The translations under genes were made by a program, and so were the position numbers. From the NCBI GenBank assembly GCA_000002435.2, contig CM018789.1: a stretch of DNA of 64,000 nucleotides; one strand, 5' to 3'. This stretch comes from Giardia intestinalis. Lineage: Eukaryota. Shown in pieces: positions 23,335-62,400 of the stretch (position 1 is the stretch's first letter; each line of letters starts with the position of its first letter). Under the pieces are notes generated by a model, which did not search any database, was not told the origin of the DNA, and saw only the letters and a list, made by a program, of their open reading frames with translations.

Positions 23335-23626
23335 CTCATTAATTAATGCCTCATCAAAAATGACCCACAAAACTTTTAATCACCGAAGCATTTAAAATTA
23401 GCGCTGTAAGGCAACCTTAGAAGTGCGTCTTCTGGGAAATTCCCTGGGCGTCGGGCAGAAAGTGCCGGTCCTCTGGATTCCGGGGAGTGTCTGGTGCCGA
23501 TCGGACACTCCCTAGCCGCCACACTGACAGTTATGGTTGCAGGACAAGCTTAGCGAGTCCGAACTCGACAGGGATACTCTACAGCGTTCCTTTATTCAAT
23601 CATTGACGGGCGTGTCGCTATCACGC

Positions 23627-33129: not shown

Positions 33130-34495
33130 AGGGGCTAGTGTGAACATGTTTTTCGAGGTAGTCGTCAATGCCCAGCGTCTCCCCGCTGGTGGTCAACACC
33201 CGTGTGTTCTCTCCGCAGACGGCCGGGTTGATGTGCGGGTTGTGGAGCTCCGAGATCTGGCTCGAGCATGCCTGGGCAGGGTCGCCGGAGGAGGAGAGGG
33301 CGCCGTCCCAGAACTCGTTCCCCGGGAGCGCGTTCCCGTCCCACGCGTACGAGACCACCAGGAGCTTGCCTCTGTGCTCCGCCGGCAGGCTGTCGTGGGG
33401 GTTTCGCCTGGAGAAGCGCACGCGGATGTGCTCGTAGGTCGCCCGGGGGAGGGCCTGGGCGGTGAACCACGCAAAGTCCAGGTCGCTTATGCCCGCGAGA
33501 CGCCCTGCCAGCCTTGCGAGGCAGCGGGCGAAGGTCTCGAGGAAGACGGGCTCCTGGGCCGGAGACAGCGCCCAGACGCCCAGCCCGATCCCGACAACGT
33601 GAACGTAGGCCCTCGTGCCGGCGCGGGTGGCGCGGGAGTGTGCCTCCAGCAAAAGGGTCTCGAAGGAGATCGCCAGCCTTGCAGAGTACGCCTGCCTATT
33701 CAGATACAGGTCCCCGATCGGAAGGTACTTGTCGGAATCTGCGCTGCTCCTAACCCGGTCGTACAGCGGAAGGCACGGGAGACCGTAGAGCTCGGCCCAC
33801 ATCTGCCTCCACGAAGCGGCCGCCGTGGGCTCTCCGGAGGGCTCTCCATACCCGCGCGCCCTAACGTTCTGGTCCTTGGAGACGACGACCTCCTCCCACT
33901 CCATGACGCCCTCCTTTTCCAGGCGAGGGCCGATGAGCCCGATCACAACCCCGTGGCTCTGGACGGCCTCGCGAGACGGCACCGGAACGCCCCTGTTCTC
34001 CCGGGACCCGTTGTTGATAAACACGCTGTACGAGCTGACCGACAGGAGCGCAGAGAGCTTGATCTCGTCGTAGGTCAAGCGCTCTGGCAGCGAGCCCCCG
34101 CCCCAGCCGCGCCCCCGCGTGCCGTCCAGTAGCGTGAAGGAGTCCTCGCAGCCGTAGAAGGATACCGCTCTTTTTGTGAGGAGGCGGTGGACAAGCGCGG
34201 TGACGGTCATGCCGCGATACAGCTCCCTCTCGGAAGGCGTTCCGTGGCGGGCCTTGTGGCGGAGGAAGCTGGCGTAGAGGCGCACCGCAGACTCGTGAAG
34301 CAGGGGGTACGCGGACTCGGCGAAGGCCGACAGCTGCTGCGGAGAGGCCACGCCGCGCTGGAGAAGGTACTGGCAGCGGACAGTCTGGACCGGAAAGGGC
34401 ACGGAAAACCGGGCGCTCCTGGACATGAGCGCCGCCAGCAGGGGGCATTGATCCGCCCGTGGCTGCTCTCCCAGCGGCTCTGCAGTGCTAATCAT
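33089..34495 (-). CDS. GC-rich gene encoding a 468-aa protein; possible macrodomain / bacterial-type PARG (DUF2263)-like ADP-ribose-processing enzyme
   Basis: It is the longest and only compositionally protein-like frame in a ~68% GC block. The opposite-strand ORFs there are R/G/P/A junk. The track start at 34543 is GTG. The ATG at 34495 (caagataaaATGatt) gives MISTAEPLGEQ.... Macrodomain-like motifs in the right order: RGRGWGGGSLPERLTYDEI (Gly-rich loop, GGG-X8-[QY][ED]E) and, about 165 aa later, YVHVVGIGLGVWALSPAQEPVFLETFARCL (compare GAWGCGVFxNDPAQVAxAFA of microbial PARGs). Assignment is from recalled motifs only. Confidence 0.5.
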   Translation of the reverse strand: MISTAEPLGEQPRADQCPLLAALMSRSARFSVPFPVQTVRCQYLLQRGVASPQQLSAFAESAYPLLHESAVRLYASFLRHKARHGTPSERELYRGMTVTALVHRLLTKRAVSFYGCEDSFTLLDGTRGRGWGGGSLPERLTYDEIKLSALLSVSSYSVFINNGSRENRGVPVPSREAVQSHGVVIGLIGPRLEKEGVMEWEEVVVSKDQNVRARGYGEPSGEPTAAASWRQMWAELYGLPCLPLYDRVRSSADSDKYLPIGDLYLNRQAYSARLAISFETLLLEAHSRATRAGTRAYVHVVGIGLGVWALSPAQEPVFLETFARCLARLAGRLAGISDLDFAWFTAQALPRATYEHIRVRFSRRNPHDSLPAEHRGKLLVVSYAWDGNALPGNEFWDGALSSSGDPAQACSSQISELHNPHINPAVCGENTRVLTTSGETLGIDDYLEKHVHTSPSTGTPGTRHPSSR

Positions 34496-34789
34496 TTTAT
34501 CTTGGCGCTCACGGTCCCGAGGCGCCAAGCTGTGGGGTGCCACGACGGCAGAGGAGGCGCACAGCTCTGACCGCCTCTAGGGCACAGGGTTGCAAATATT
34601 GTAGGTTTGTGTAGAAGGCGGAATTACCTAAGCCGCATTAGATAATCCGTGATCCATTTCTCATCTTGCCAGATAGTGCTACTTTGGATCAGGAGATGGA
34701 CAAAGTCCAGCATTAGTTCGTACCAGCAGCACAATATATGATGGCCATTGTATAGAGTACTGCCCTAAAACACAATCTATTCCAGTAGG

Positions 34790-38932: not shown

Positions 38933-40075
38933 TCACGCGTCCATAAATCCACGACAGTTTGGCGCGTTGCAAAAGCACTGCAGTCGTATGTCTCCCTCCA
39001 TTTGCCGAAGGTGATAGTTATAGCAGAGCTCATCTCCGGGCGAAATGTTTTCGAGGGCACGTAGATACAGTCTATTTTCTATCACATGAACTTCACAGTT
39101 TGGTAAGCAGCTGTGATTGGCAAACCTGGCGGCGTTTCCAATGAAAGTTGCGTCTACGATGATCTCCTGGTTTGATGAAATGCTGAACATGTAAGTAGAA
39201 GTAAATCCCTTGCTGCTCAAGATGCGCTCCCTTTGGTTGGCCTGTTCCTTGTTGACAATCTCTCCCACATACTCGATGACGTTTTTTCCTCGCGGAATGT
39301 ACACTAGCGCAAAGAGCCCGTGCCCGTGAATCGAAGACTTCATGACACAGCAGCTCTGACCTAGCATGAGCCTGTGGCGCTCTTTCCAGGACATTGGTGG
39401 GCCAGGACCAATCTTGGCTGCATCGTGCTTAAGGTAACAATCGGTAAAGTTCTGGAGAGACCGTTCTAGATAGCAGCTAGGAAGAAGTCGGCCTTGCTGT
39501 CTCTGTATATGCCTTATCTTGCGATTGACAAAAGCTCTCGAGAAGTATGGAGGAGTGTGCTTTTGCTGAAAGTATACCTGATAATATAGCTCTACGGCTT
39601 GATCCATTCTCATGGCCAGTCGACTAAAGTGACACTCATCACCCTCTTCTGTGTCTGGCTCTCTGCTACCGTTATCGTGCTCAGTTTCCCGTTTGACGAT
39701 CTTCCACTGTGCATTCTGATATTCAAGGCAAAGCCGTCTAAAAGCTGTTGCTCGAAGAATGCGTGAGCAATGGTCAAATTTGGCAAGGCTTGCTTCTTTG
39801 AATGTGGCATAGCTTGCCTCTACCTCAGAAGGTGGTGATGTGTAAAAGACAACTATCTGGGTCCTGCCATGCCTTCTTCCTCGGATTGCTGCGTAGGTAA
39901 TGCTGGACATGTACGGAGTCGAGTGGAACTCCTTTAGTGCTTTTAATGTAACTAGATGGGGATTCTGCGTGGTGGTATCGAAAGTTAGAGCTTCCCTCGG
40001 CTCGTATGTAACGCTTTGCTCCCAAATCCCTAATGCACGCAAGGAAGATAGGTTCACAGAATACAAGGGAGGCAT
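38933..40075 (-). CDS. SET-domain protein lysine methyltransferase with post-SET Cys cluster
   Basis: The track start at 40096 is TTG. The ATG at 40075 gives MPPLYS.... SET motifs: GHGLFALVYIPRGKNVIEYVGEI, RFANHSCLPNC, ELCYNY, and post-SET CFCNAPNCRGF. Confidence 0.75.
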   Translation of the reverse strand: MPPLYSVNLSSLRALGIWEQSVTYEPREALTFDTTTQNPHLVTLKALKEFHSTPYMSSITYAAIRGRRHGRTQIVVFYTSPPSEVEASYATFKEASLAKFDHCSRILRATAFRRLCLEYQNAQWKIVKRETEHDNGSREPDTEEGDECHFSRLAMRMDQAVELYYQVYFQQKHTPPYFSRAFVNRKIRHIQRQQGRLLPSCYLERSLQNFTDCYLKHDAAKIGPGPPMSWKERHRLMLGQSCCVMKSSIHGHGLFALVYIPRGKNVIEYVGEIVNKEQANQRERILSSKGFTSTYMFSISSNQEIIVDATFIGNAARFANHSCLPNCEVHVIENRLYLRALENISPGDELCYNYHLRQMEGDIRLQCFCNAPNCRGFMDA

Positions 40076-40097
40076 GCTCTTTCTTAAATCTTGCAAT

Positions 40098-47108: not shown

Positions 47109-50100
47109 ATGCCGGGAGATGTCACCAAGACAGTGGTCCTTCATAGAAACCAGAGACTGCGTCAGGTATATCTCGATGTTCCATCTGTTTTAACGAACTC
47201 CCCTACCTCTAGACACCTAGATGAGCACCAGGAAATAAATGTTCGTTCCACCACCCTTGCTAATTTCAGAGAGGCGGCATCAAAGTGGAAGGACATGCCC
47301 TTTCTTTCCTTCCGCAGCGGACTTTCGTGTACAGCTAAGAACCAGATCCCGGCGTACCAGGCTGTTACATATGCAGAGGCAGATCAGATGGTGAACCACT
47401 TGGCAGCAGCGCTCAAGTACGTCGGCCTCTCATACCAGAAAAAGGTCGGCCTCTTGGGGGACACATCCCCTCTGATGCTCATGTCTGACCTTGCAATCAC
47501 CTCTCTGGGGGGTATATCTGTTTCCATACCATCCTTTCTTTCGTATGATAACATAGTGTATGCAATTAACCATTCCGGAGTGCGTGTGCTTTTAACGCAG
47601 GCTCAGTTCTTACCAATGATTCTAGGCACCTCGAATCACTGCCCTTTCTTGAAGCTTGTTCTTACATTCGATCAAGTTATTGATGACATTGATCTTCTTC
47701 CTAAGGCAGTGAAGGTCTATGCTCAGCTTAGTGAAAACCAGCATCTATTGCATGATGCAGACGAAGATGAAGAGAACTCTCTCTCTGAGAACGTCATCGA
47801 TAGATCATATCTAGAGAATATTGCAGACAAGAGTAACATCGCTGTCGAGGCCGTGTTAGAGTCTACAAAGGAGTATGAGGATGAACAGAAGCAGGCAAGG
47901 GAAGGCGCTCTTGTGGAGGTCGAAAGATGCCTTAATGAGGACGATACCCTAACTGAGGAAGAGCTGGACTCTCAAAGGAACTCTGTTATAGCAGCTCATT
48001 TCAATAACGTTAATCCTCTGAATCCGACGGCGTTGAAGATACCAGAGAGCAAGGTAACAGACGAGCTAACGAAGCAGATCATCATCCGTGCGCAGATGAC
48101 AGACATCCAGTCCAGATTTACCACTCCCCTAACAGCTTTGAAGCTCTCCCAAATCTATCAAAAGAAAACATGTGGCCAAATTCTTTCTAAGGAGCTATAC
48201 AATCTAGTATCAAACTTGCGAACAAAGGAGTGTTCGTTGGATGCTGCTAAGGATTGCATTAACAGTCCGCTTTATCTAAGCCATCTGGACAATCTCAACA
48301 TCATTCAGCTGGATCAGCTTTTGGAGCTGACTAAGAGAAATCCATACACAGCTTCTGATGACTATCAAGTGGACCCTACCGATGTCTGGTCAATCTCGTA
48401 TTCAGAGGTAGGATACACCTCCAAGTACTCCTCTATAGACTATTTCTTTGGGACTTGCAACAGAAAGCTATGGGACCCAAATCAGTCCTCTGCCAATGCT
48501 AAAGCTGATCCACGCCCTGCGAAGAAGTTTAGTCAATTCAACCTGTTACTGAGTGGACATCCTGTCAAGGCAAGCGTCTATTCACACAGTTGTTTCCTCG
48601 CTGCAATAAGGTCTCACTTTTACCATCACTTTCCATACAATACAGCAACCTTTTCCCAAGTACACTCTAGCTATTACTGTCATCTGCCATACAATTCCCT
48701 TTTCGAGAGAATTATGGAACATGGAGCTATAACACGAGGGTACCGCCTGGTCTTTCACACAGGTCAGTTTCGCTATCTATTTTCCGACATGCTGCTGGGA
48801 AGACCGACAATCTTCGCTGCGTCTCCTCGGTTTTTCAAAAAACTGCACCAGTACTTAGTCGAGTTCCTGACCAAGGTGAGCGCCAACAAAAAGAAGGCCT
48901 TTGAAAAGACATACAATGCGCGGCTTGCAAAGCTCAGCTCTATATACGCAGCCATGGAGAGAGCTCACTCACTTGTCTATATGCTGGATACTATAGAGTA
49001 TTTTGAGGAGAAGTTCATGGACATCCACACTCGCAATATTGAAGCGGTTATGCAAGCAACCAATAGCGAGCTATCCTACAATCTTCATCGCTCTGCGTTC
49101 ACTTTGGCGCCAAGCTATAAGACTGTCCTCGACATTACAAGCCCCTCATACAGAAACAAGGCCAAGCACAAGAGAGCTCAGAGTTACGTTGACGCGCACC
49201 ATTATGAGCAAAAGCAGGCCATGTCACTTCAACCAGAAAAGAAGCATACTCTAGACCAGTTGGGAGTTGAGCTAAGCCCGCAGCTAGACTTCAAGAATCA
49301 GCAGTTTACTGACATCATCGAGCCCTGGATCGTCTCTAGCAACCCGCGCACACGAGCCCTTCATACCTTCAGAATAGCTAGTGAGGATATTGGTGGAGGG
49401 GACGCCGGTTGCGATTTCTCTAGGCTCACACGTCTTCGTAAGATTGGAAGCAGAGACATCAACATTTCGAGCCTGCAAGGAGAGTCAATGGAGAGCAGCG
49501 AGCAGACGGACAAGGAGAAGAAATTCAACAAGTACATGCAGGCTATTGTCAATAAAGTGAGCGCTCCCCTTTCCACCACAGTTAAAGAGTTTGTTCCACC
49601 AGAGGACAGTATCAAAATAAGTCGGAGCAAGGCAAAACTAAATGCATCATCGATTCCGTTGCTTCCGCGGAACATACTGATGTGCAGTGACGAGAGTGAT
49701 GCAAGCAGTCACAGCGAGATTAGCGAAAGCAGCACAAAACCCATAGAGTCTGCAGCTCTGCCGCCGGAAGCACCTGTTGAAAAGCTCCAGCACAATACGC
49801 CTGGACTAATGGAAGGCTCTCCGTTTAAGATGCAGCGCTATGGATCCAGTTATGAATGGCAGTACTATGAACATCTCAAAAACAAGGAGCCATCCTCCGT
49901 CACTGGAGATACAGAGTCTAGTCGTAGCGAAATGGGAACCTCACATTCAGTCGGAATTTCGTCTAAGCATGAGTCGGAGGGAATCGCTACCACAGAGGTG
50001 TCATATACAATTACTAGCGCCTCCCATTCCAGACCAGATGCAGAGGCAAAACACACAGGGGCTCAGCTCACTGAAGTGCGAAAACGAACACGCTCCTCAC

Positions 50101-52820
50101 ACAATGAGGCCTTGTCAGTGATTCACCTGAACGCCTCCCCTTCTCTTGAAGAGACCTTTGCGCAGAAGGAAGGCAAGTCCAAGCAAACTTCTATTAAGCA
50201 AAGAAAGGAACTAAATAAGCTGCACAGGCAACAGCAGAAGAATATGAGCAAGGTCGTGAAGGATAAGACAACCGTCACTAAGGAGCTTAATCGACTGCAT
50301 TTTGAGAACAATTTAAAGGTAGCACTAAGATCTTCTCCAGCAGAATCTCCTGTCATCAAACGCGTTCAGGATCTCTTCGGCGGCAGCCTGGAGTTTATTA
50401 TTTCTAATAGCGTTATAGACAACGTTGATACTTGGGAGTTTCTTCGAACCATACTGGGTTGCCACGGATGTCAATTGGTTGGCTATAGTGAGCTAACAGG
50501 TGGCGGCCTTTACAACGAGGTGCACGATAGCTCATTGAACTGGAGCCTAGGAAGGTCGGGAGTCGGCGTCAAGTGCAAAATTGTTGATCTTTCTGAAGGA
50601 TGGTTCCCAGATATTCTCACGCGGCTAGTTCTTGATAGCGTGACACCATCTCTTCACACTGTGAGCCGCAAACTATACATACAGCGCTATAACAAACTGC
50701 AAGAGATGATTGCGAATGGTATGCCACGCTTCATAGACACACAGTTGGGTGAGTTGTGCCTTGCAGGCCGTATGCTCAGCTTGGGGTATTATGCTGGCGA
50801 CGCTCTTTATCAGTACGCTAAAAGCTTTAAGCCGTCTCCTCGGGATTGCGTCCAATCTACTACTATGGAAAGCTTTAGCACCACGACTAACGTTTCTATG
50901 TCCGAAGGAGGGGTTGCTGATTTTCCCTGCAAATCTAGCGAATTAAATATTACGACTCCCCGACGGCTTTCCTCGGGCGGTCTTTCTGAAAATAAAGTCT
51001 GCCAGAAGGAAGAGTCAGATCGCAGCAGTCAGTTTTCTACAATGGATTGCACGTCCATCAATTCTACCCCATCGTGGCTGGATGCAGAAGTTGACCATGG
51101 AATTGCCGTCAGAACAAAGGAGAAGCTTCTTAAACAGGCAGCCCGGCGCAAATCTATGATTATTGCCAGGAAGAATGCAAGTGCCTTGGGCTTAAGTACT
51201 TCTAATCTCAAGCAAACGACTGCATCAGAAAGCGATCCGTTTAGCGGGTCAGTATATACAATCGGCGGTATTGCAGGGCAAAGCGCCTCACAAACAATAT
51301 TGGGTGTTCCTCTCATAAATCTTTTATCGTCGTCATCCTCGGGACCGCCCAAGACCACATCTGCACGGCGTATGTCATCAACGAGTACAAATTCGACACT
51401 GGCAGCTGATATTGCATCTGTCAACCAGACGTTTGTTCCTACCATCATGACGCCTGCAACAACCAACCCGTTTTCTGCCCCGCTCAACTATAATCAGACG
51501 GCATACTCTAGTAACGCCTCGCTGAATATTAAGAGTTACAAAAGTACCACTAAAGGGAATGAGCACATAGATCAATCTCTAGCCCTGAAACCAGTCTTTC
51601 CGCCCGAAAGGCCTCCAGCCAACCTATCGTTGCCTATTTTGGAGTCGCAGTGCTCAAATATGCTATCGTTGGCATCCATGCATGGAGTTTCGGGGCGGTC
51701 TTCGCTACATGCCAGATCAGTGTCTCCCCAGATTCCTTTACTTGAGCCGTCTACATCGTGCTGCACAGGCGGCCAGACTACCAATGATGTCTCCATTGAC
51801 ATGCCATCGCAGCAGGGTCTTGTGGTGCTAAATCCACCGCAGCAATCCATTTACGAATGCATCATTGATCCCACAGATGAGGATGGCTACTACCACACGG
51901 GCGACATGGTCGAATTCGAGCAGCTTAGCGGGCGGATTATATACCGTGGGACTGTTCGTGACTATCTAGACAGACACGTGTATGCAATTATAGAGCGTTT
52001 TCTGATCGAAGAAGAGCTTATTTCGCCTGAGCAGCGGGACAGGGATCCAGACACTCTCTCGTCCACGCTTCTGTCTCCTGAAGAGCTGAGCTTGTGCTCC
52101 AGACCAAGCAAGGTGCCGGCAGACATGTGGACAAAAGGCAAGCTTGTCGCCATGCATATGCGCAAGCAGCTCTGTGCAAACCTCCACATGACATTTAAGC
52201 TGTCTTCTTCGCACTATCTAAATATAGGGTTAATAGAAGAGCTGATTGTATCGGAGATACCTTATGTTATTGACGTTTTACTTTACACATTCGATGGTGC
52301 CTCTAGGCCGATGGCGTTCCTTTACGTCAAGGGATTTGCACTACTAGAAGCTCTTGAGCAGGGGGGAATTCGTTTAAATGCAGTTGAGAGCGGTGAGGCA
52401 GACTTCTCTGTTGATAAATTTACTAATTCGAAGACAATAATATATGCAACTCTTGGCAAAATGCACGGAGAAAACAAGGACAAGCTGACAAGCTTTCTAA
52501 AGGGGACATCAAAAGGGCCTCAGATACCCAGGTATGTGATGCGAGTGTCGCACTGTGCATTTCTCTCTATCGTAGACAATGCCCGCATTTTAACGTACAT
52601 CCGCTCCGATATAAGGATGGTTCTTCGGGACAGGAATCTTTCCAGATACTTCGCACCCATGTACATCGTGTATGTGACCAACTCAGACATGCTATTGACA
52701 GAGCCAAAGCTACGCACCATAACCGGAAAGCGAAACAGGGAGTCGTTTCTTAAGAAGTTCAGTGGTGACATTGCGAGGTACAAGCAAGATGAGGGTGTGC
52801 CAGAGCTTATCTTCCATTGA
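47109..52820 (+). CDS. Giant (1903 aa) acyl-CoA synthetase / AMP-binding-enzyme-like protein with degenerate ATP-binding loop and very large insertions
   Basis: ATG at 47109. The N-terminal ANL-superfamily pattern is TYAEADQMVNHLAAALKYVG...VGLLGDTSPLMLMSDLAITSLGGISVSIP...YAINHSGVRVLLTQAQ. The putative P-loop position reads LLSGHPVKASVYSH instead of [ST]SGTTGxPKG. The downstream motif YHTGDMVEFEQLSGRIIYRGTVRDYLD corresponds to YRTGD...GRxxDxIK. About 1200 aa of low-complexity insert lie between the motifs. Confidence 0.55.
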   Translation: MPGDVTKTVVLHRNQRLRQVYLDVPSVLTNSPTSRHLDEHQEINVRSTTLANFREAASKWKDMPFLSFRSGLSCTAKNQIPAYQAVTYAEADQMVNHLAAALKYVGLSYQKKVGLLGDTSPLMLMSDLAITSLGGISVSIPSFLSYDNIVYAINHSGVRVLLTQAQFLPMILGTSNHCPFLKLVLTFDQVIDDIDLLPKAVKVYAQLSENQHLLHDADEDEENSLSENVIDRSYLENIADKSNIAVEAVLESTKEYEDEQKQAREGALVEVERCLNEDDTLTEEELDSQRNSVIAAHFNNVNPLNPTALKIPESKVTDELTKQIIIRAQMTDIQSRFTTPLTALKLSQIYQKKTCGQILSKELYNLVSNLRTKECSLDAAKDCINSPLYLSHLDNLNIIQLDQLLELTKRNPYTASDDYQVDPTDVWSISYSEVGYTSKYSSIDYFFGTCNRKLWDPNQSSANAKADPRPAKKFSQFNLLLSGHPVKASVYSHSCFLAAIRSHFYHHFPYNTATFSQVHSSYYCHLPYNSLFERIMEHGAITRGYRLVFHTGQFRYLFSDMLLGRPTIFAASPRFFKKLHQYLVEFLTKVSANKKKAFEKTYNARLAKLSSIYAAMERAHSLVYMLDTIEYFEEKFMDIHTRNIEAVMQATNSELSYNLHRSAFTLAPSYKTVLDITSPSYRNKAKHKRAQSYVDAHHYEQKQAMSLQPEKKHTLDQLGVELSPQLDFKNQQFTDIIEPWIVSSNPRTRALHTFRIASEDIGGGDAGCDFSRLTRLRKIGSRDINISSLQGESMESSEQTDKEKKFNKYMQAIVNKVSAPLSTTVKEFVPPEDSIKISRSKAKLNASSIPLLPRNILMCSDESDASSHSEISESSTKPIESAALPPEAPVEKLQHNTPGLMEGSPFKMQRYGSSYEWQYYEHLKNKEPSSVTGDTESSRSEMGTSHSVGISSKHESEGIATTEVSYTITSASHSRPDAEAKHTGAQLTEVRKRTRSSHNEALSVIHLNASPSLEETFAQKEGKSKQTSIKQRKELNKLHRQQQKNMSKVVKDKTTVTKELNRLHFENNLKVALRSSPAESPVIKRVQDLFGGSLEFIISNSVIDNVDTWEFLRTILGCHGCQLVGYSELTGGGLYNEVHDSSLNWSLGRSGVGVKCKIVDLSEGWFPDILTRLVLDSVTPSLHTVSRKLYIQRYNKLQEMIANGMPRFIDTQLGELCLAGRMLSLGYYAGDALYQYAKSFKPSPRDCVQSTTMESFSTTTNVSMSEGGVADFPCKSSELNITTPRRLSSGGLSENKVCQKEESDRSSQFSTMDCTSINSTPSWLDAEVDHGIAVRTKEKLLKQAARRKSMIIARKNASALGLSTSNLKQTTASESDPFSGSVYTIGGIAGQSASQTILGVPLINLLSSSSSGPPKTTSARRMSSTSTNSTLAADIASVNQTFVPTIMTPATTNPFSAPLNYNQTAYSSNASLNIKSYKSTTKGNEHIDQSLALKPVFPPERPPANLSLPILESQCSNMLSLASMHGVSGRSSLHARSVSPQIPLLEPSTSCCTGGQTTNDVSIDMPSQQGLVVLNPPQQSIYECIIDPTDEDGYYHTGDMVEFEQLSGRIIYRGTVRDYLDRHVYAIIERFLIEEELISPEQRDRDPDTLSSTLLSPEELSLCSRPSKVPADMWTKGKLVAMHMRKQLCANLHMTFKLSSSHYLNIGLIEELIVSEIPYVIDVLLYTFDGASRPMAFLYVKGFALLEALEQGGIRLNAVESGEADFSVDKFTNSKTIIYATLGKMHGENKDKLTSFLKGTSKGPQIPRYVMRVSHCAFLSIVDNARILTYIRSDIRMVLRDRNLSRYFAPMYIVYVTNSDMLLTEPKLRTITGKRNRESFLKKFSGDIARYKQDEGVPELIFH

Positions 52821-55800
52821 TCAGGTTGGCCCTCAAGAAGTCCAGGGTCTCTTTGGCGGAGAGCCCAAACAGCTGCGCAGCGGACTCTATCTTCTCATTA
52901 TTTTTTTCAGTCCATGCCCAGTGACTGGCATCAAGCGAAAATAGCACCACACTATTTGAAGAATAATATGAAGACGACCATCTATTGGTTAAGCTGGGCT
53001 CAGAAGACATCGCCATCATTATAACCTTTTGTGGAATCACCTTCAGAAAGGTAAAATCGGAATGCTTTCTGGCAGATGTATTAAGCTTATCCATGCAGAG
53101 CTGCATTCTTCTACGAACAGACGACATGGTCGTCTCAGGCTTAACTCCAAAGTAGTGCGAGGTGTCAGCTACTGCAATCCAAAATCTTGTTATCAGAAAG
53201 TGTATAGTGGTGGCGTCACGGAACTTTTCGTTGTCCATGACGCACTCCATGAAGTTCGCCACCGGGGTACTGATGATGTCTCCAGCTTCCTTTAAAATCC
53301 CTTTAACCTTGTTGCGGAGAGAGACATAGCTTTCTTCCGACCACTCGGTAGGGAGCTCGAGGCCTGTGTATACAGAAGTACCCATGACGCTTCTCTGCAG
53401 TTCATTGCAGTCCAGAGACTGGAACTGAAGGGACTGCTGAGAGTAAGAGTCCTGACTAGACACATACGTAGACGCCTTAACACATGCAAATGCTGTTCGT
53501 GCCGCGTCCCCCGTGGAGAGCACAAGGCGGAGAATTAGCATTAGAATGAGTTGTACGCGCAAGGGATTAGCTGAAAGCTCTTCCGGATTCTTCGCTATAT
53601 ACATGCTAGCTATAGTATTTGCAAACTCTGCCATAGAGCTTATGACCTCACTAACTGCGCTAGTCACCATATCTGTGCTCATCATTACATGGGCTTGCAC
53701 AGACATGCACATGCTGATTGAATAGTAAGATGCTATAAGCTCTAGAATGTATGCAGAAAGAGCTACCAATTCGCTGTCATTCGCAAATAGTAGATCCACA
53801 AAATAGGCCTTAAGTCTGTATATCTTCTCTGTCAAGGGCTTAAATTTGGTTGGGTCCGTGTAGGGGAATGTTATCAGGTGGTTAGATATGCATATGATCT
53901 TCCCAATAGGTCTCCTATCGTTGGTGGTGAGGATGTCCTGAATGAATCCAAGAAGAGTATTAAACGCTAGCTTAATAAGGGAAGAATCGAACAGTCTCAT
54001 GCAGATGCTAGACCTTATGCATGGAGACGCAAACTGAAGCTGCATTAGCGCATTCATAATCTCATTGTATCTCCCACAAAGTGCTGTGCGTACAAAGTGT
54101 ATGGCATCGGCCCGTGAAAAGATCTCTTGGAGAAACCTTTCCAGGGCTTCCTTTCTCACTTTGTTTATTAGTGCGTCCTTTAGCGACAAACCCTCTTTTC
54201 CTTTTACTGTCGTAAACTTTAACCAGTAATCGGCGCTTAGTATCATTTCAAACAAGGTCTTCTTGAAGAATTGATGCTTTAGTATAGCCTCTAGAAGATC
54301 AGCATTATTAGAAATATGTGTAAACACTTTTGAAAAGAGAAGGTATATGTCTCTGCGCTGCCTATGGGTGAATGGTGGAGACTCGTCGGCAATTTCACCG
54401 AGAAAGTAGCAATTAACCAACTTAGTTATTATTGCGTCGCGCTTGAGGAAGGAGATAACGCGCGGCTCAACCTCAGTCAGCTGATTAAGTGCATCGAGGG
54501 AAAGGAGCAACGTGAACACCTTGTCGGTATTGATGCACTTATCTATGTCGTCGTAATTATTGGCATTAGTGATCGCATCCAGGTAAGGCGTGGATGGACA
54601 AACCTCCTCCTTAGTAACTCCAGGAACTTGTAGATCATTGCCTCCATAGTATAAGTTGATCTCTTCCATACACTTGTAACTCAATAGAGTCCGAAGCCGT
54701 TTCTTTCTAGATATCATGTTTGATATGGCAGATCTTGTCTTCGGCAATGTATGCCCATGCGAGACAATAGGTGACTCCTCGGTAGCCTTGTGAGCAAAAT
54801 CGTTAAAGAACACCAGCTCACAGTCTGCAAGCAGGTGCTTGGAGTCTCCGTCTTTGAAAGCATCATTCTTGCTCTTCTTATTTGCGCCAGAAGTCTTAGA
54901 CAGCTCACTTGCAGCTGCTTTCACTGCTGATAAACCTCGACAAATGCCCTCATAAAGGAGACGGGTAGGCATCGGGACGTCGACCACTGTGTCTAGGGTA
55001 TTCGATGCTTCCATTCCATATGGAACGGGCGTCAATGCTGAAGTAGAGTGTTGCTCTTTGAACAGAGAAAAAGTCCTGGCTGAAAGGACATCCCTAGCTG
55101 TCGTATCCTCATTGAATGTCTGGTTATCCACAGGGGATTCGCTCATTTTAGATATTGACTGGAGCGACGGGTCCGGCGAGTCCTGGGAGAATGTAAGAAG
55201 CTCATCGGACGGAGCGCTTGGCAATGGCACCTCGCATGAGCCGTAACTGTGAGTGTGCTTATCAGTGACAGAGCTGTGGCAGCTTGTGCTCGTCTTAAGA
55301 GGAAACGGATAGGTGGGTTGGCGGCCCTGTTGACGCAAAGCCGCAGCCTCTGAGAGATGCCTGCACTTGAGGCTATGAATATTTATACATGGCTTTGCCC
55401 TATAGGCTGCAAGCTTTCTGACAAAACTCTTTAGACACTTGATTTCGTTCTTTTTAACCTGAACTATGTTCTTATCTATACCGGACACATGTGTAATGAC
55501 ATCAGCAAATTTAGTGATCAGCGAGACGACTGTCTCTGATGTGGTCTCGTTCAAACGCTTTACAGAGTCGATCTTTATACTAGAGTCCTGCAATGGATAG
55601 TATTGAGGCAACTTGATGCATCCATCACTATTAAAATAAATCGACTCGGCAGTTAGTCTCGGAGAACACCACATGCAAGAGGAAAATGTGCCATCTTTGT
55701 ACTTATTAAGAACATCTACCGCAAGAATGAGCTGCGCCGAGCAATCCCAGAAAACTTCTGTTGAAAAGCGCTCCGGATATATAGTGTAATAGAGTTGCAG

Positions 55801-56313
55801 CTGGCTGAGAGAGGGGCCTGTAGGTTGCTCTATCAAAAGATGCAGCTTTTCCTCCTGGCCTTTGCTAGAAAAATATGCCATATCTCTGTGCCGAACAAGG
55901 TTTGGATGGATGACAGCACAAGATTGAAAAAGGTAAAAGAGAAGCAAATTATAATCTGGATCATTGACCTGGAGATTGATTTCCTTCCATTGAAAAATAA
56001 GCTCAGAAGCATCTAGTTTGCGACTATTGTCAACCTCGGTAAACAAGTCTTCAAGTCCCTGATAGTCCTGAGCTGTAAGTTCTGAGAAGCAGGGTAAGTG
56101 CCCTAGGCTACCAGAAGCCTTACTTATATCTGAATTCCTTGAGGTGGGTACAGATGAAAGAATGTTTTGGGGTCGTGGAGTTTTTATAGACTTTGTAAAA
56201 GAGGATGAGGTCTGAGTAGAATTAGTTGGAAGCGATAGCTGGACCACTGGAAGATTCGTCTCGCCTTTGTAAGGAGACAAGTCGGAAGCCTTGGCTACGG
56301 AGGCATGATTCAT
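52807..56313 (-). CDS. Hypothetical large protein (1168 aa); N-terminal region has a weak kinase-like HPNLVRHRD segment
   Basis: ATG verified at 56313. The 3' end overlaps the previous gene by 14 bp (convergent). No confident family. IHPNLVRHRDMAYF resembles a kinase subdomain IV-VIb remnant, but other kinase motifs are absent. Confidence 0.5.
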   Translation of the reverse strand: MNHASVAKASDLSPYKGETNLPVVQLSLPTNSTQTSSSFTKSIKTPRPQNILSSVPTSRNSDISKASGSLGHLPCFSELTAQDYQGLEDLFTEVDNSRKLDASELIFQWKEINLQVNDPDYNLLLFYLFQSCAVIHPNLVRHRDMAYFSSKGQEEKLHLLIEQPTGPSLSQLQLYYTIYPERFSTEVFWDCSAQLILAVDVLNKYKDGTFSSCMWCSPRLTAESIYFNSDGCIKLPQYYPLQDSSIKIDSVKRLNETTSETVVSLITKFADVITHVSGIDKNIVQVKKNEIKCLKSFVRKLAAYRAKPCINIHSLKCRHLSEAAALRQQGRQPTYPFPLKTSTSCHSSVTDKHTHSYGSCEVPLPSAPSDELLTFSQDSPDPSLQSISKMSESPVDNQTFNEDTTARDVLSARTFSLFKEQHSTSALTPVPYGMEASNTLDTVVDVPMPTRLLYEGICRGLSAVKAAASELSKTSGANKKSKNDAFKDGDSKHLLADCELVFFNDFAHKATEESPIVSHGHTLPKTRSAISNMISRKKRLRTLLSYKCMEEINLYYGGNDLQVPGVTKEEVCPSTPYLDAITNANNYDDIDKCINTDKVFTLLLSLDALNQLTEVEPRVISFLKRDAIITKLVNCYFLGEIADESPPFTHRQRRDIYLLFSKVFTHISNNADLLEAILKHQFFKKTLFEMILSADYWLKFTTVKGKEGLSLKDALINKVRKEALERFLQEIFSRADAIHFVRTALCGRYNEIMNALMQLQFASPCIRSSICMRLFDSSLIKLAFNTLLGFIQDILTTNDRRPIGKIICISNHLITFPYTDPTKFKPLTEKIYRLKAYFVDLLFANDSELVALSAYILELIASYYSISMCMSVQAHVMMSTDMVTSAVSEVISSMAEFANTIASMYIAKNPEELSANPLRVQLILMLILRLVLSTGDAARTAFACVKASTYVSSQDSYSQQSLQFQSLDCNELQRSVMGTSVYTGLELPTEWSEESYVSLRNKVKGILKEAGDIISTPVANFMECVMDNEKFRDATTIHFLITRFWIAVADTSHYFGVKPETTMSSVRRRMQLCMDKLNTSARKHSDFTFLKVIPQKVIMMAMSSEPSLTNRWSSSYYSSNSVVLFSLDASHWAWTEKNNEKIESAAQLFGLSAKETLDFLRANLINGR

Positions 56314-56467
56314 AGTTTTGAACAGGACAATTTTTGTTTTTGAGACCTACACGTCTTAGAGATAGGGTGCCTGTTCAGTGATCTCTGTCTCTACTGACTT
56401 CTGACCCAATGAAGCACTGCAGTGGCCTGCGTGGTCCTCGATTGAGCCCGTAATAAAAAACTGACAC
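56314..56467. promoter_or_regulatory. Divergent intergenic promoter region with A-rich initiator (aataaaaaa) upstream of the giant plus-strand gene
   Basis: A 154-bp spacer between ATGs at 56313 (minus) and 56468 (plus). Confidence 0.35.
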
Positions 56468-59400
56468 ATGTTCTCCTCCGTTATTGGCGGCCTGCGCCAT
56501 CCACATGGGTCTTCTATCTTGAGCGCGGCAATTGAAAGCATTAAGGTCCTCAGAGATAAGCGAAGATGCGAGCTTTTGCATCGCGCGATCTCCCTCATAG
56601 ATGAGGGCCTTTCAGACAGTTCGACAACCACAGCGATTTGCCGTTTGTCTTACCTTCTATTCTCGCCAGAAAACCCAGAACCCAAGGAGCTTGCAGAAGC
56701 TACAGAGGCTGGTCACTTGTTCTGGAAGGTCATAAGATGTATCTCGACCTCATCTAACAGTTCAGATAAGACGTCTTCTTTAGCATCCTACATTGCATGT
56801 TCTTCTAGCCAAGTCACTGCCACAGAAAAGAAGTTTTTCTCGATCGCCTTACTTACAGACGACGCCCTCACAAATGAAATGCTCATCGCTGCGGCGGCCA
56901 ACTTGTATCCGGCGCTCTTTTGCGAATACGTACTTGTCCAGCTACCAGATGCATACAAGGACGAGTCTATAGAAATGCTAGAGCTTCTTAGGACACGAGC
57001 GGGGGTCACGCACGGCCACTTGGAGGATATCCTGTCCATTCTTCCGCAAGGCACACTAACTGAAGATGAAATACTACAATTAAAAGAGGCAGTCACTAGT
57101 TCCTTAGCGTCAGCGTCTAATGTGACGTTCAGTGCTTATCCTACCCCTTTACTTCCAGTTATTTCTAGGCTACTTTCCAAGGCCCGTCCATACTCAAGGG
57201 AGCACCCTGCTATGTATTCTTCCAAAGGGAATCCTCTTTTGCGTATCCTATACCGCTCACTTCTTCAACTGGATTCACAAAAACAGACATCGACGATTCC
57301 AGGCCCCTGGCTTATGATTCAGCTTGTTTTAGCGGCCGCCTATGCGGTAAAGCTCCAGAACAAGGTCTGGGCTGACACACTTCTCCAGCGCCTCCTTTGT
57401 ATTGTTCCAGCTCTCGAAGGTAAGTATTCTCGCATTCTAGGGCTTTGTGCACTCATTCACCTTGCAACCTCCTATGACACTGACAATAGTTTACATGCTG
57501 TGCTCACTCCCCTTACTCTCGATGAGATCAAGTTGTTTCTTACCAAGGTGGAAGAGTGGATGAAGATGGACAAGTCTTCCATCGTTCTTCGAACGTTAGC
57601 GTTTCAAGGGGCAATATCAATTATAAACTCCGTGAAATCTCAGGATCAGATCTTACTCGCGCAGCTAGCCCCATCACTCCTTTCCGTAGCAGCTGGAATA
57701 CATCACAATATAGGAACCTTCATAAACATACTAAACGCATTTGCGGCCGAACTACTGGAGTTTCAAGGGTCCGCTATTCTGTCAACTCTTTTTGATCTCC
57801 AGACAGCTGGCCTTAGCGGCGTCTCAGGGCTCCTACGTGTTGCAGACGATGTTAGGTCCTTGGTGCCCCAGGCATCTATCCCTCTAACAACAGACTTGCA
57901 CGCACAACTGCAACCAGATCTCAGTTGGCGTCAGGCTACACTGGAGTTAATTAGAAAAGAAAAGTATGGCTCTAAATATGGACCACGCTTGCTTTCATCC
58001 CCACTGTTTCAGGACCTACTTCAGCTTCATGCGTTCATAGCCATAAACGTCATCTCTTTCTACCGGTTCACAAGTGCTTTGGAGACCTTTCTTTTGACTT
58101 GTTGCGTTGCTACTCCAAACAATGACTCTGCTTCTATACTCCTACGTGCTTTAGAGTCAGACCAGGTTAGTGAAGATTATAACGGTCCTACATCTTCCGA
58201 AGCGTCCTTTTCTTCCAATTTCTCGACAATCCTTGATGCGTACCTAAGCGCCGGCGAACACCTTTTCGAAGTTATTTCCACCATCTACGATCTGTCGTCT
58301 GGCCTCAGCTCTAACATCAAAGCTCCTGCTCCCCCAAGGCTTCTGCCCTCTACTCTAAGGAGGCTGAGTGAGCTCTCCATTCTTCCTGACACGTTTGGGT
58401 ATGCAGAGTTTTTCATTGTCGCAGCAACAGCACGCGTTCTAGTATCCTTATACCTGCAAGACACAAAGATGGTGAGCAACAGAATAAGGTTCTTCCCCAA
58501 GAAGGCAAAGATTAGTTCCATTGTCTTACTCATGGGACTCTACCTTCTATCAGATATTCCAGAGTTTTACCGATTTTCGCCTGATTGTGCTTCGTTTCTC
58601 AATATGATCCTTCCTTTGTGTATTAATCTTCCGCTGGGAAAGCGTAAATATCGGGAAAGCGTACTTGGTAAGCATGGTGGAAGCCCATGCCACAGCTCCA
58701 CTAATGTCCTTGAAGATGCAGAATGCTTTTCGCAGCAATCCTTACTGTCTTATTCAGACCTCAGCTACTCGGTTAGGAGTGATGGGGACCCCCTTAGGTT
58801 CCATCGCATAAGCCTTGTTCTAGCGCATATTTTATACACGGCATTAAGCAAGCAGCTATGTGATCTGGCATTGGTTGATGACTACCTCCTTATTATGGTG
58901 TATATCTCTACTGGAGTATTTTCGTCAACCGACTCGTCCATTGAGTCCATGGACACAGGCTCTTCCGATTTAGATGAATCCCAGTGTCTATTGCTAAGCT
59001 TAACATCTTCCTGGCTCAGCCCAGCACCTATTTGTAAGGCTCTCCTCGTCTTCTTGTTTTCTAATAATATGCCACTGAGCCTATGCTCAGATTATCCTGG
59101 AATGTTCAACTTTTTAACGTGGAACGCAAAGCTGATAGCAATCAGACTTCTGGATAGCACTCTAGATCTGCTTCCAGACTCTGCACGTCGAGAGGTTATC
59201 CTGTCCTCCAGGCTCTACTTCCATAAACTCTTTGTGATCCTGACTGAGCTACTACTGATTCCTCTTCAGCCTTATATCTCCACATTGCTTTCATTCCTGC
59301 ATAAGATCTCCAACTGTCTTCTAAGCCAAGATGATGTGTCTCTTGCCAGTTCCCTCGGAGTCGCAGTGACATTTCCAGATGAGCCTCTAGAGCTTGTCGA

Positions 59401-62400
59401 GTGCACTAAGAAGTGTATGACTGTATCAGATAGAATGTCTGAGCCACCATCGTACGTACACTGTCGTTATAAGTCTGCGTCCGGGGTGGAGCTGTTTTCC
59501 TATTGTGCCGTGTTAGACGATAGGAGCGCAATCACATCTCTCTATGCATATCTTAGAGCACTTATTGCTGCGCACATAAGGCGGTTGCAGGAGAAGATAG
59601 GCTCGGGGAAAATGGCACTTGTACCTCTGGAAAAGCATGCAATCCAGCAGTTCTTCACAGAAAAACGGGCAAGCTCATTGTCTTTTTCTCAGATGTTTCC
59701 TGGGATGCGCTTTCTTGGCCACTCGTCCCATCTGGTTGTTGGAGAGAACTTATATGCATACTTCTGTGGCGAGAATTCACAGCTATACCAAGAAGCGTAT
59801 ACATACTGGTATGACTGTTTCATGCTAGACCTCCTCTTCAACATTCCTGACACGTTCTCTTTAAAGTTGTTCAATGAATATGAAAAGATTAAGCAGACAA
59901 TAGGCCAGCAAATAAAGGACCGCAAAAAGACAGCTACACCGTTTAGTGATTGCTATAAGGTATTGACGCACTTTATATACATGCACAGTCTTCTCTCTGC
60001 CAGACGTCTTTTGCAGGCGTCCTCTGTATTCTCGCTAGAGCGCGCTTCGTCTCTTCAGAGCATATTATCAGCTCCTACAAGCCTGTCAACTACAGAACCT
60101 AGTTCGCGCGTCAATTCCATGGCTCAATTTCCTTCGTCTCCGTGTGCTGGTATTATTACACAAGGAACAAGAGACTCCCTGCTAACCGACCAAGACAGAC
60201 GCTATCAGGTAGAGCTTAACATTGTTCTCACGACCTTCTGGGACATTTATGACTGGGCAAGGGACAAAGGGGCCTTCTCCGTGCGCACTATCATGCACTT
60301 TGGTCAGTGCATCTCTGCTGTTTCTAGCTCTCTTGTACTGGCGATGATCACTCTATGTGAGCAACGAAGCCAGAGCACTGCGGCCTCTGTTCTTCTCAAG
60401 TGTTATGCAGACTTTTGCAATGCAGAACAATACTATCGTCCGGTCACAAAACTAGACGAGGCAGTTGCTGCAGCTGAGCGCATTGGCATGGTTGTTCCCA
60501 GAATGACTTCCAGCACATACCAGCTGGAGCAATGCTGTAAGGAGCTCATATACTTTGCAACAAACAAGAGCTATCTCTTATTTATGGACACAACTGCCTA
60601 TGTCCTGGACGCGCTGCTACGTCTCCCGACTAGACCTGCTGAATTCACTACTGCTCAAGTTCTTATGCACTTGCTGGGATACATCGTCCTGTACTCAGGT
60701 ATTCCTCGCTTGTGCAGAGCAATAATTGAGTCTCCAATCTTTCATCGCTCGACAGGCAACATTTCTAAACTAGCTGACTCTCCATCGTATTCTGCTTTGT
60801 ACAAAGCCAACGTGGACACTATCGCAGAATTCTTGACCAACAAGAACGCTAACGTACACTCTAGCCTATTTGTTTCCTACCCCGTATGCTCACGATATCG
60901 ACGCTTAGCTGCTTACTCCACGACCCTAGTTGATGAAATCCTTGAACATTGCTGGAGCAGCCCTCACTCTTGGTCCATCAACACAGACGACTCTTCTGAC
61001 AGCGAGACCTCCCCTGCTGACGTGGATGTGGATAAAGTAACCGTCAGTACCAGACTAGCTCGGCACTGCGCTGAGATCCCTGAAACACCATATGTATCTG
61101 AGAGCATATTAGATGACGATAAGAGGTACAACGAACACTTGCACAGACCATGTGAAGATCTGAATGGGTCCATGGAGAACTTGCTTAGTCCTGAGCTGAA
61201 CACTAATGTCTATTCAGACCAGAATGAGGCGCACGGAAGCTCGTCGATCTTTGATGCTGAGTACGATGCGGCGCATACTCTTTCAAGAAGAAATAGTGTG
61301 TTCCGCAGTGCTAGAAGCTTAAGAAATCGCAGCCTTAGTACCACGCATGAGCTTTTGCCAGGAGATCTCTCGGTCTACCGGGCCTTGACTGCGTCCATTG
61401 CAGAAAGCAAAAGTGCCGGGCCTTCAGAGTTAGGTAGTACAGCTGCCTCCTTCACTAACTTCTTGAAGGATGAGAGTCGACGCTCTCCCCCTGCAACTTC
61501 ACGTTCAGATGCCCGCACCACCGTGCAGCTTGCAGAGCTGAAACGACTGGGGTACTTCCACATGTCTGCCATCTCAAGTATGGTTAGCATAATGCAGCTC
61601 ATAGACTTGCCGTCCGAAGCCCGCGCCCTCATTTTGGGGAAGGCGTGTCTTTGCATTACTTTCTATGAGTCTTCTCTAGATCACAAGGAGTTCTTCCGCA
61701 CCCACCTGGCAAACAGAATTATTCGCCTACTTCTCTTGGCTGTCGAGCAGAGGCCCCAGGCATCCACCATAACAAGCATTGTGCTTATGTTCTTCGTTTG
61801 CGCTAATTCGAAGCTAGACATATCTACGCTGGGAAAGAACTATTACACCAATGTGGATAAAGGTCCCATTCTTCCCTTTTTGCAGCCGCTTGCCTCTGCC
61901 ATACTCTCCTACTTCCTTTCCCTTGCACCACATATTCTGCTGCAAAGTATTTATGGGCGCTACGCTCTGCAAAGGGTGGGCGTTCTGAATAGTTATGTCG
62001 ACCTCATTGGGTTTCAGCAGCTCTATCCTCAGTGTATTGGCCATGCGACCAATCTCGACAAAGTTTTTGAATTTGCTGTGCTCTGGTGCGACGCGTCAGT
62101 CTGGTTTCACATACTTAAAGTTTTGTTAGTTGAAGGTTTCATAAATACCTCCGTTGACAATCACACCCTAATATACAGGCGCACGTTATTAAGAACGGAC
62201 GGAGATTTGGTTATCCGCATGAGGAACTTGACATTCATACGAACCATTGACAGCTTGGCAAATGGGACAATTTACCGGGCTACTGCCCAGTTTTTATTAA
62301 CATTGGGAGAGCACACGTGCATCCAGACCGTGCTTTACTTAATATCGAAGTGTGTAATGCCCCTACACGGATACCGAGTGGGCAGACTTCTTTACAGCTT

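Follow-up and report, generated by a model that had tools for sequence, protein, structure and literature searches.

GL50803_17174 of Giardia intestinalis, a giant acyl-CoA-synthetase-like protein that is likely a pseudoenzyme or a repurposed scaffold

Giardia cannot make fatty acids, and Giardia acyl-CoA synthetases (ACSs) have been proposed as drug targets (PMC4510421). Metabolic reconstruction and target lists both depend on sorting real enzymes from dead scaffolds among the ACS-like genes. Here, we examined an open reading frame (ORF) at 47109..52820 (+) of a 64,000-nt stretch of Giardia intestinalis DNA (hereafter, the window) and asked whether its product, GL50803_17174 (hereafter, 17174), is a canonical fatty-acid CoA ligase. 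An earlier note, made from the letters of the window, had described a single acyl-CoA-synthetase-like ORF of 1903 amino acids (aa), and this was confirmed by the ORF listing (one uninterrupted 1903-codon frame), by exact identity with a public protein (XP_001707858.1 / KAE8301415.1 / UniProt A8BCA2, from G. intestinalis WB, assemblage A), and by the score of the Pfam AMP-binding family PF00501 (E 1e-24 and 87.5 bits, against a cutoff of 29.9, for the whole protein). The note had also proposed a pseudoenzyme or repurposed scaffold and not a canonical ligase. The sequence comparisons below support that proposal, with losses at the phosphate-binding loop (P-loop), motif A4, the hinge, and motif A8 on an otherwise recognisable ANL scaffold. 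In other words, 17174 is likely a pseudoenzyme or a repurposed ACSL scaffold, and it is specific to Giardia in the databases searched.

Catalytic motifs and the ANL scaffold

The motifs of 17174 were read from an alignment to 26 canonical ACSLs. The canonical A3 motif, or P-loop, is [YF][TS]SG[TS][TS]GxPK[GA]V, and in its place 17174 has YSE, an insertion of 45 aa, and LLLSGHPVKASV (LLLSGHPVKA in the A3 test). The Thr present in 24 of the 26 sequences is replaced by S432, the Ser present in all of them by E433, and the Gly is lost; P485 and K487 are the only A3 residues retained. No P-loop-like or Walker-A string was found elsewhere in the whole 1903-aa protein, and the degenerate P-loop that the earlier note had recognised is therefore upheld, with the addition that it is split by an insertion. 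The A4 His (25/26) is replaced by S530. At the hinge, Asp/Arg-Arg is missing whichever of the three registers given by different alignments is used (G1614-T1615, H1683-M1684, or A1690-N1691), and in A8 the Gly (25/26) and Glu (21/26) are replaced by S1701 and H1702. Nor is there a contiguous FACS signature (DGW.HTGD...IIDRKK.IFKL.QGEY), which is interrupted by a 65-aa insertion (aa 1626–1690) and has both DR and GE replaced. In these enzymes, A3 binds phosphate, the A7 Asp binds ribose, and the hinge Asp-Arg drives domain alternation and contacts the ribose. Given the losses at A3, A4, the hinge, and A8, ATP-dependent fatty-acid adenylation and thioesterification would be absent or very poor.

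Other catalytic positions are intact. A5 keeps S1127-E1128, its Glu being invariant in all 13 aligned sequences and in 26/26 canonical ACSLs, with Leu replacing the Thr that follows (22/26). G1214-E1215 of A6 is also invariant. All G. intestinalis assemblages retain the A7 residues T1597-G1598-D1599, and K1874 of A10, within TITGKRNR, aligns with the Lys of TPSxKxxR (23/26). K1697 and R1877 are kept as well. The presence of K1874 and E1128 at their expected positions corrects the first reading of the sequence. The ortholog in Giardia muris keeps the A10 Lys, but it has a P-loop insertion of 54 aa, PVR for PVK, DEL for SEL, and TAE for TGD. In other words, catalytic positions drift between Giardia orthologs while the protein is retained, a pattern like that of a pseudoenzyme, and the loss of the A7 Asp and the P-loop Lys in G. 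muris suggests that the constraint on catalysis is gone in that lineage.

The hinge itself varies among related sequences. Most canonical diplomonad ACSLs (GiACS5, P0041, Hexamita, and Spironucleus) have Arg-Arg there (VRR or IRR), whereas other eukaryotic ACSLs have Asp-Arg (IDR); among the aligned fornicate ACSLs, P0036 has Cys-Arg and that of Dysnectes has Ser-Arg. The hinge Asp has thus already been replaced in relatives that are presumably active.

The two-domain adenylate-forming scaffold on which these motifs lie is complete and in order, with A1 to A10 collinear along the entire ORF. The absence of any AMP-binding similarity would have told against the earlier description, and the similarity is far above chance. 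The PF00501 match falls into three collinear pieces (aa 53–192, 487–596, and 1094–1164, corresponding to profile positions 1–135, 178–277, and 288–361), and the landmark strings quoted in the earlier note are all present: VTYAEADQMVNHLA at aa 86–99, LAITSLGGISVSIP at aa 128–141, LLLSGHPVKASVYSH at aa 479–493, and YYHTGDMV...GRIIYRGTVRDYLD at aa 1594–1621. The second core segment contains PTIFAASPRFF and the A4 remnant HLPYNSLFER (48681-48710). PDB sequence searches, whether with the protein or with an ortholog profile, detected the A1–A2 region only. NCBIfam models likewise matched A1–A2 only, far below all cutoffs, and no bacterial subfamily could be assigned.

An AlphaFold2 (AF2) model of aa 40–1239 had a predicted TM-score (pTM) of 0.60, with predicted local distance difference test (pLDDT) values of 75–97 in the core segments and low confidence in the inserts. 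When this model was compared with the PDB by Foldseek, the top listed matches were all ANL enzymes, including carboxylic acid reductase A-domains (E about 1e-9, with one at 8e-10), the FadD13 N-domain (target-normalised TM-score, TMt, 0.55), and the Thermus thermophilus long-chain enzyme LC-FACS (TMt 0.45–0.49). Pfam gave no match in the C-terminal 333 aa, and single-sequence AF2 of aa 1060–1903 reached a mean pLDDT of 32; the assignment of the C-terminal half (A7, hinge, and C-subdomain) rests on hhalign, in which aa 1686–1903 of five orthologs matched canonical ACSL C-subdomains with a probability of 94.5% (E 7.6e-8), pairing FKLSSSHY with FKLxQGEY (A8) and TGKRNR with TPSxKLKR (A10). The collinear Pfam pieces, the AF2/Foldseek result, and the C-subdomain alignment together indicate that the ANL/ACSL scaffold is complete and ordered.

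Insertions and selection on the gene

GL50803_17174 is a real gene that is under purifying selection and is not decaying. The same protein was recovered from independent assemblies (WB, DH, GS, P15, and Logan runs). Its orthologs are GLP15_5161 in assemblage E (1904 aa, 90% identity) and GL50581_3497 / GSB_17174 in assemblage B (1905 aa, 81% identity), and there are two Logan-only variants of 1902 aa with 78% identity; DHA2_17174 lies in the same 90%-identity cluster. The ratio of nonsynonymous to synonymous substitution rates (dN/dS), calculated by the Nei–Gojobori method across assemblages A, E, and B, was 0.05–0.07 for the whole gene, with dS from 0.73 (A–E) to about 2.1 (A–B). By region, it was 0.00–0.05 in the core segments and 0.04–0.18 in the insert regions: 0.04 in insert 1, 0.07–0.08 in insert 2, 0.10–0.14 in insert 3, and 0.13–0.18 in insert 4. 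The values of core segment 3, which carries A5 and A6, were among the lowest in the gene, and those of insert 3 were among the highest, yet still purifying. The low dN/dS in every insert indicates translation and purifying selection along the entire frame, and it bears indirectly on the contiguity of the ORF, for which the earlier note had suggested transcript evidence. Furthermore, strong purifying selection on the core and the structured inserts points to a retained, non-canonical role.

The protein is 2.5 times as long as a canonical ACSL and carries about 1,100 extra residues spread over seven insertions, which were delimited against canonical ACSLs (Table 1). The seven regions total 1200 aa in 17174, compared with 1000 aa in the G. 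muris ortholog and 757 aa in the paralog GL50803_17170 (hereafter, 17170); canonical ACSLs have 62–149 aa there. The earlier figure of ~1200 aa of inserted sequence thus holds as a total but not as one huge insert between the subdomains. Nor is the inserted material uniformly of low complexity, as had been supposed: its Shannon entropy is 3.9–4.05 bits, and insert 1 is conserved like the core. As to disorder, which the earlier note had proposed to check, insert 2 is predicted to be disordered, with a pLDDT of about 25, and insert 1 forms helices in the model.

Insert 1 has nearly the same length in G. muris (207 aa), with 42% identity, compared with 44–57% in the cores; the corresponding position holds 22–164 aa in canonical ACSLs and 107–164 aa in the canonical Giardia ACSs. 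Insert 2 (435 aa, 287 aa in G. muris, 28% identity, and 5–12 aa in canonical ACSLs) projects from two long helices (aa 592–664 and 1022–1063) in the AF2 model, and insert 3 has 335 aa against 268–270 aa in G. muris (29% identity). The insert at aa 1165–1210 is 46 aa long in both Giardia species (39% identity) and 0–11 aa elsewhere. Insert 4 is 75 aa long in G. muris and 14 aa in all other aligned sequences. The P-loop insert, the aa 1165–1210 insert, and insert 4 occur only in the 17174 lineage, and the remaining insert positions are common to 17170.

Table 1. Features of the GL50803_17174 locus in window coordinates
Feature	Position	Strand	Basis or remark
Complete CDS (coding sequence) of GL50803_17174, 1903 aa + stop	47109..52820	+	ORF listing, exact public-protein match, dN/dS
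ANL N-domain core segment 1 (aa 40–205)	47226..47723	+	PF00501 positions 1–135, E 3.8e-17; pLDDT 77–97
Motif A1	47364-47405	+	in core segment 1
Motif A2	47490-47531	+	in core segment 1
Insert 1 (aa 206–415), acidic, predicted helical, conserved	47724..48353	+	210 aa; helices pLDDT 40–66
Degenerate A3 / P-loop: SISYSE, 45-aa insertion, LLLSGHPVKASVYSH	48390..48587	+	alignment to 26 canonical ACSLs
P-loop insert (aa 434–478), 45 aa	48408-48542	+	low-confidence model; 36% identity to G. muris
ANL N-domain core segment 2 (aa 479–640)	48543..49028	+	PF00501 positions 178–277, E 7.5e-5; pLDDT 75–94
Insert 2 (aa 641–1075), Ser/Lys/Glu-rich, predicted disordered	49029..50333	+	pLDDT about 25 over aa ~659–1019
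ANL N-domain core segment 3 (aa 1076–1240)	50334..50828	+	PF00501 positions 288–361; dN/dS 0.01–0.02
A5 VGYSELTGGG	50478-50507	+	core segment 3; E1128 invariant
Helical insert (aa 1165–1210), 46 aa	50601-50738	+	pLDDT 64–81; within core segment 3
A6 GELCLAGRML	50748-50777	+	core segment 3; G1214/E1215 invariant
Insert 3 (aa 1241–1575), Ser/Thr/Pro-rich, variable	50829..51833	+	S 18%, T 10%; no confident model
A7 block (aa 1576–1625): DEDGYYHTGDMVEF, then GRIIYRGTVRDYLD	51834..51983	+	100% identical in five G. intestinalis-type orthologs
Insert 4 (aa 1626–1690), within hinge / FACS-signature region	51984..52178	+	65 aa; 38% identity to G. muris
ANL C-terminal subdomain (aa 1691–1903)	52179..52817	+	hhalign to canonical ACSL C-subdomains
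A8 remnant TFKLSSSHYLNIG	52191-52229	+	in C-terminal subdomain
C-domain insert (aa 1762–1825), 64 aa	52392-52583	+	insert map vs canonical ACSLs
A10 TITGKRNRES with K1874	52716-52745	+	in C-terminal subdomain

Small islands conserved between G. intestinalis and G. muris lie inside inserts 2 and 3, for example TTNPFS and IAR(K/R)N. The island TTNPFS(A/G), at window positions 51459-51482 (aa 1451–1458), is conserved to G. muris within the poorly conserved insert 3, and the second island, (I)IAR(K/R)N(A/S)..LG, lies at aa ~1351–1361. NPF, the tripeptide within TTNPFS, is a classic EH-domain-binding motif. A membrane-anchored ACSL was also considered and rejected: on the Kyte–Doolittle scale, no segment of 17174 exceeded 1.6, the one at that value was a core strand, and none was a plausible transmembrane anchor.

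Relatives in Giardia and readings of function

An exhaustive phmmer search with aa 1–650 against 1.84 billion representatives found no comparable architecture outside Giardia. The best match was G. muris TNJ27804, annotated as an AMP-binding enzyme (1691 aa, E 6e-158, 43% identity over aa 13–636, including insert 1), which has the same insert layout as 17174 and is 44–57% identical in the cores. TNJ27801 (1282 aa), the G. muris ortholog of 17170, ranked third and GiACS5 (GL50803_113892, 758 aa) fourth, followed by ACSLs of Hexamita, Dysnectes, and Spironucleus. A word-indexed homolog search with the family alignment returned mostly long nonribosomal peptide synthetase (NRPS) proteins and none of the diplomonad relatives, and it added three ACSL-like sequences to the multiple alignment. 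In a neighbour-joining (NJ) distance tree from 585 well-occupied columns, the 17174 clade (assemblages A and B and G. muris) had 100% bootstrap support and was sister to the 17170 clade, also at 100%; both lay within a fornicate ACSL clade (98.5%).

GL50803_17170, the closest paralog, is a degenerate ACSL-like protein of 1523 aa, encoded on the minus strand 15 kb downstream at window-equivalent 67,983-72,554 (L003:10001-14572), just outside the window, with genes for 1168-aa, ~2745-aa, and 965-aa proteins in between. Judged by accession order, TNJ27804 and TNJ27801 of G. muris are likewise three genes apart. The linkage in both species indicates that the pair is an ancient linked duplication, and the duplication would have taken place before G. 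intestinalis and G. muris split. The two proteins share 34% identity over the N-terminal region (E 3e-38) and the positions of inserts 1, 2, and 3 and of the C-domain insert, and both are degenerate at A3, A4, and A8, with 17170 degenerate at A10 as well. Unlike 17170, however, 17174 is 380 aa longer, has its own P-loop, aa 1165–1210, and insert 4 insertions, and retains the A10 Lys and the P-loop Lys, both of which 17170 has lost. Guo et al. (2015) listed five GiACS genes and three related genes, demonstrated the activity of GiACS1/2, and stated that 17170 had “probably lost its ACS function”; 17174 is not in their inventory (PMC4510421).

Comparison with the ACSL paralogs of the same genome, proposed earlier as a check, supported the degeneracy of 17174. 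The canonical Giardia and fornicate ACSLs (GiACS1–5, GiACS5 being the closest) have the same two-domain ANL fold and motif order and are 24–34% identical to 17174, but they are 693–853 aa long with A3, A4, A5, A7, A8, and A10 intact, whereas 17174 has about 1,050 more inserted residues and a broken P-loop, hinge, and A8. The N-domain, as modelled, can be superposed on T. thermophilus LC-FACS (1ULT/1V25/1V26) and the Mycobacterium tuberculosis FadD13 N-domain (3T5C) with a Foldseek probability of 1.0 and TMt of 0.45–0.55, and the A1–A2 region can be detected by sequence. In contrast, identity over the structural alignment is about 10%, the reference enzymes have no large inserts, and their ATP-binding P-, A-, and L-motifs are only partial in 17174, which keeps the A5 Glu and has lost the P-loop and linker.

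From these comparisons, we consider it fairly probable that canonical fatty-acid activation has been lost or crippled in 17174 and, jointly, that the protein serves a non-canonical role on an ACSL fold. Three features expected of a pseudoenzyme are present here, namely homology to an enzyme family, the loss of catalytic residues that are key to it, and purifying selection. A retained non-canonical role would account for the strong selection seen in the core and in insert 1, the P-loop insert, the aa 1165–1210 insert, and insert 4. That role is most likely to be that of a soluble ligand- or partner-binding scaffold, although this is the least certain part of the reading. Candidate ligands of such a scaffold are fatty acids, acyl chains, and acyl-CoAs, and insert 2 (predicted disordered) and insert 3 (Ser/Thr-rich and variable in length) could be flexible, possibly phospho-regulated interaction regions. 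More tentatively, and with rather less than even confidence, 17174 and 17170 could make up a family, confined to Giardia, of giant proteins that derive from ACSLs and lack catalysis, in which the P-loop insert, insert 1, and the aa 1165–1210 insert would have remodelled the ATP pocket into a new ligand or partner site, the Ser/Thr-rich arms would carry short linear motifs such as TTNPFS, and the family might serve a parasite that has to scavenge all its fatty acids as a scaffold or tether for lipid sensing or lipid handing.

These conclusions were weighed against three other explanations. The extreme length and divergence of the protein, the restriction of PDB sequence matches to the first ~150 aa of the domain, and the lack of an expression record in the parts of the supplements that were covered would suit a decaying pseudogene or an over-called ORF whose inserts are non-coding or mis-assembled (unspliced introns or fused neighbours). 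However, assemblages A, E, and B all have an open frame (1903, 1904, and 1905 codons, respectively) even though dS is near saturation or saturated, dN/dS is low over the gene and exceeds 0.18 in no insert, the 1691-aa G. muris ortholog shares the insert positions, independent assemblies agree, and A1–A10 are collinear. The low dN/dS throughout the frame disposes of the pseudogene, unspliced-intron, and mis-assembly readings, and together with the independent assemblies it led us to reject them as extremely improbable. Alternatively, 17174 could be a catalytically dead subunit with an allosteric or targeting role in a heteromeric ACSL complex, paired with an active partner such as 17170 or a canonical GiACS. 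Dimerisation through the N-domain is common among ANL/ACSL enzymes, as in T. thermophilus LC-FACS (PDB 1ULT), and the linkage to 17170 is conserved in two species. Furthermore, 17170 is detected at the protein level: in the part of the supplement of PMC5913674 that was covered, it was found by mass spectrometry with 9 peptides and is listed as changed ~2.1-fold in a comparison that included metronidazole-resistant lines. Nevertheless, 17170 is itself degenerate at A3, A4, A8, and A10, and linkage by itself is weak evidence in a eukaryote, so that we regard such a pairing as quite unlikely.

A still-active adenylate-forming enzyme with an unorthodox nucleotide site, either an acyl-CoA synthetase or an adenylase of another carboxylate, with inserts for regulation or targeting, is a more serious contender, although we think it doubtful. 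It is favoured by the A5 E1128, A6, A7 TGD, A10 K1874, and P-x-K487 kept in all G. intestinalis assemblages, by the very strong purifying selection at A5–A7, and by a Pfam AMP-binding score well over threshold. Against it stand the 45–54 aa that interrupt the P-loop and the replacement of T/S/G residues found in 24–26 of 26 canonical sequences, the loss of the A4 His, the hinge D-R, and the A8 G-E, and the splitting of the FACS signature by a 65–75-aa insert. In addition, the catalytic set is not conserved among orthologs, since in G. muris TGD has become TAE and the P-loop Lys an Arg.

Several points weigh against a crippled enzyme that has become a non-canonical scaffold. P485-x-K487, A5 S-E, A6 GEL, A7 T-G-D, and A10 K1874/R1877 survive in G. 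intestinalis, and as judged from these residues the protein may have residual or altered adenylation chemistry. Selective constraint is strongest in core segment 3, as would also be expected if the active site had been retained. The AF2 model of aa 40–1239 was built on a 34-sequence alignment, and long-branch attraction could inflate the sister grouping of 17174 and 17170, which are two divergent clades placed by a distance method. No transcript or peptide record of 17174 was found in the covered parts of the supplements of Giardia omics papers, and in the literature searched we found no mention of the gene and no biochemical, localisation, or expression data.

The finding is incremental and not surprising. 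Long, insert-rich, divergent proteins are common in Giardia; 17174 was already in databases under the generic name “AMP-binding enzyme”, and its sister 17170 had already been flagged as likely dead. What is new is the motif-by-motif diagnosis, the map of seven inserts, the comparison of insert constraint with G. muris, and the recognition of a linked two-gene family restricted to Giardia. In the literature searched, no paper combining pseudoenzymes and acyl-CoA synthetases was found. Three results suggest that the function of 17174 is non-canonical, lineage-specific, and conserved: the strong selection, the matching insert layout of the G. muris ortholog, and the linkage to a degenerate paralog. 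The protein also shows clearly how much an ANL scaffold can grow and still be recognised, at 2.5 times the usual length and with 45–54 aa inserted inside the P-loop.

Neighbouring genes and other features of the window

The window is gene-dense, with intronless ORFs and a GC content of ~47%. The gene order around 17174 is identical in assemblages A, B (L001), and E (L002): a metallophosphatase gene, a 416-aa gene, a ~858-aa gene, 17174, a ~1168-aa gene in tail-to-tail orientation, and a >2,700-aa gene. The 3' end of the 17174 CDS overlaps that of the convergent 1168-aa ORF (52807..56313, −) by 14 nt (52807-52820), and the same 14-nt overlap occurs at the assemblage B locus (L001 11705-11718) and the assemblage E locus (L002 11702-11715). 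No AGTRAAY polyadenylation-like signal was found in the 150 nt downstream of the 17174 stop codon. Farther to the right, an open frame of >2,511 codons (56465-64000, +) leaves the end of the window; it corresponds to ~2745–2764 aa in related loci and has no Pfam match.

Elsewhere in the window, a 484-aa ORF (33089-34543, −) matches the MavL-like ADP-ribosylhydrolase family PF16062 from end to end (E 4e-138). The block around it (32–34 kb, GC 0.589) has the highest GC content in the window and also contains long opposite-strand ORFs; the 484-aa ORF adjoins an ABC-transporter ORF and is a possible candidate for lateral transfer. Two ORFs with a protein kinase and ankyrin repeats (2853-4526, +, and 7747-10224, −), an architecture typical of NEK-like proteins of Giardia, flank a cathepsin-C-like cysteine protease ORF (4537-6057). 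The window also contains a tubulin-family ORF (21928-23370, −) and a SET-domain ORF (38933-40096, −).

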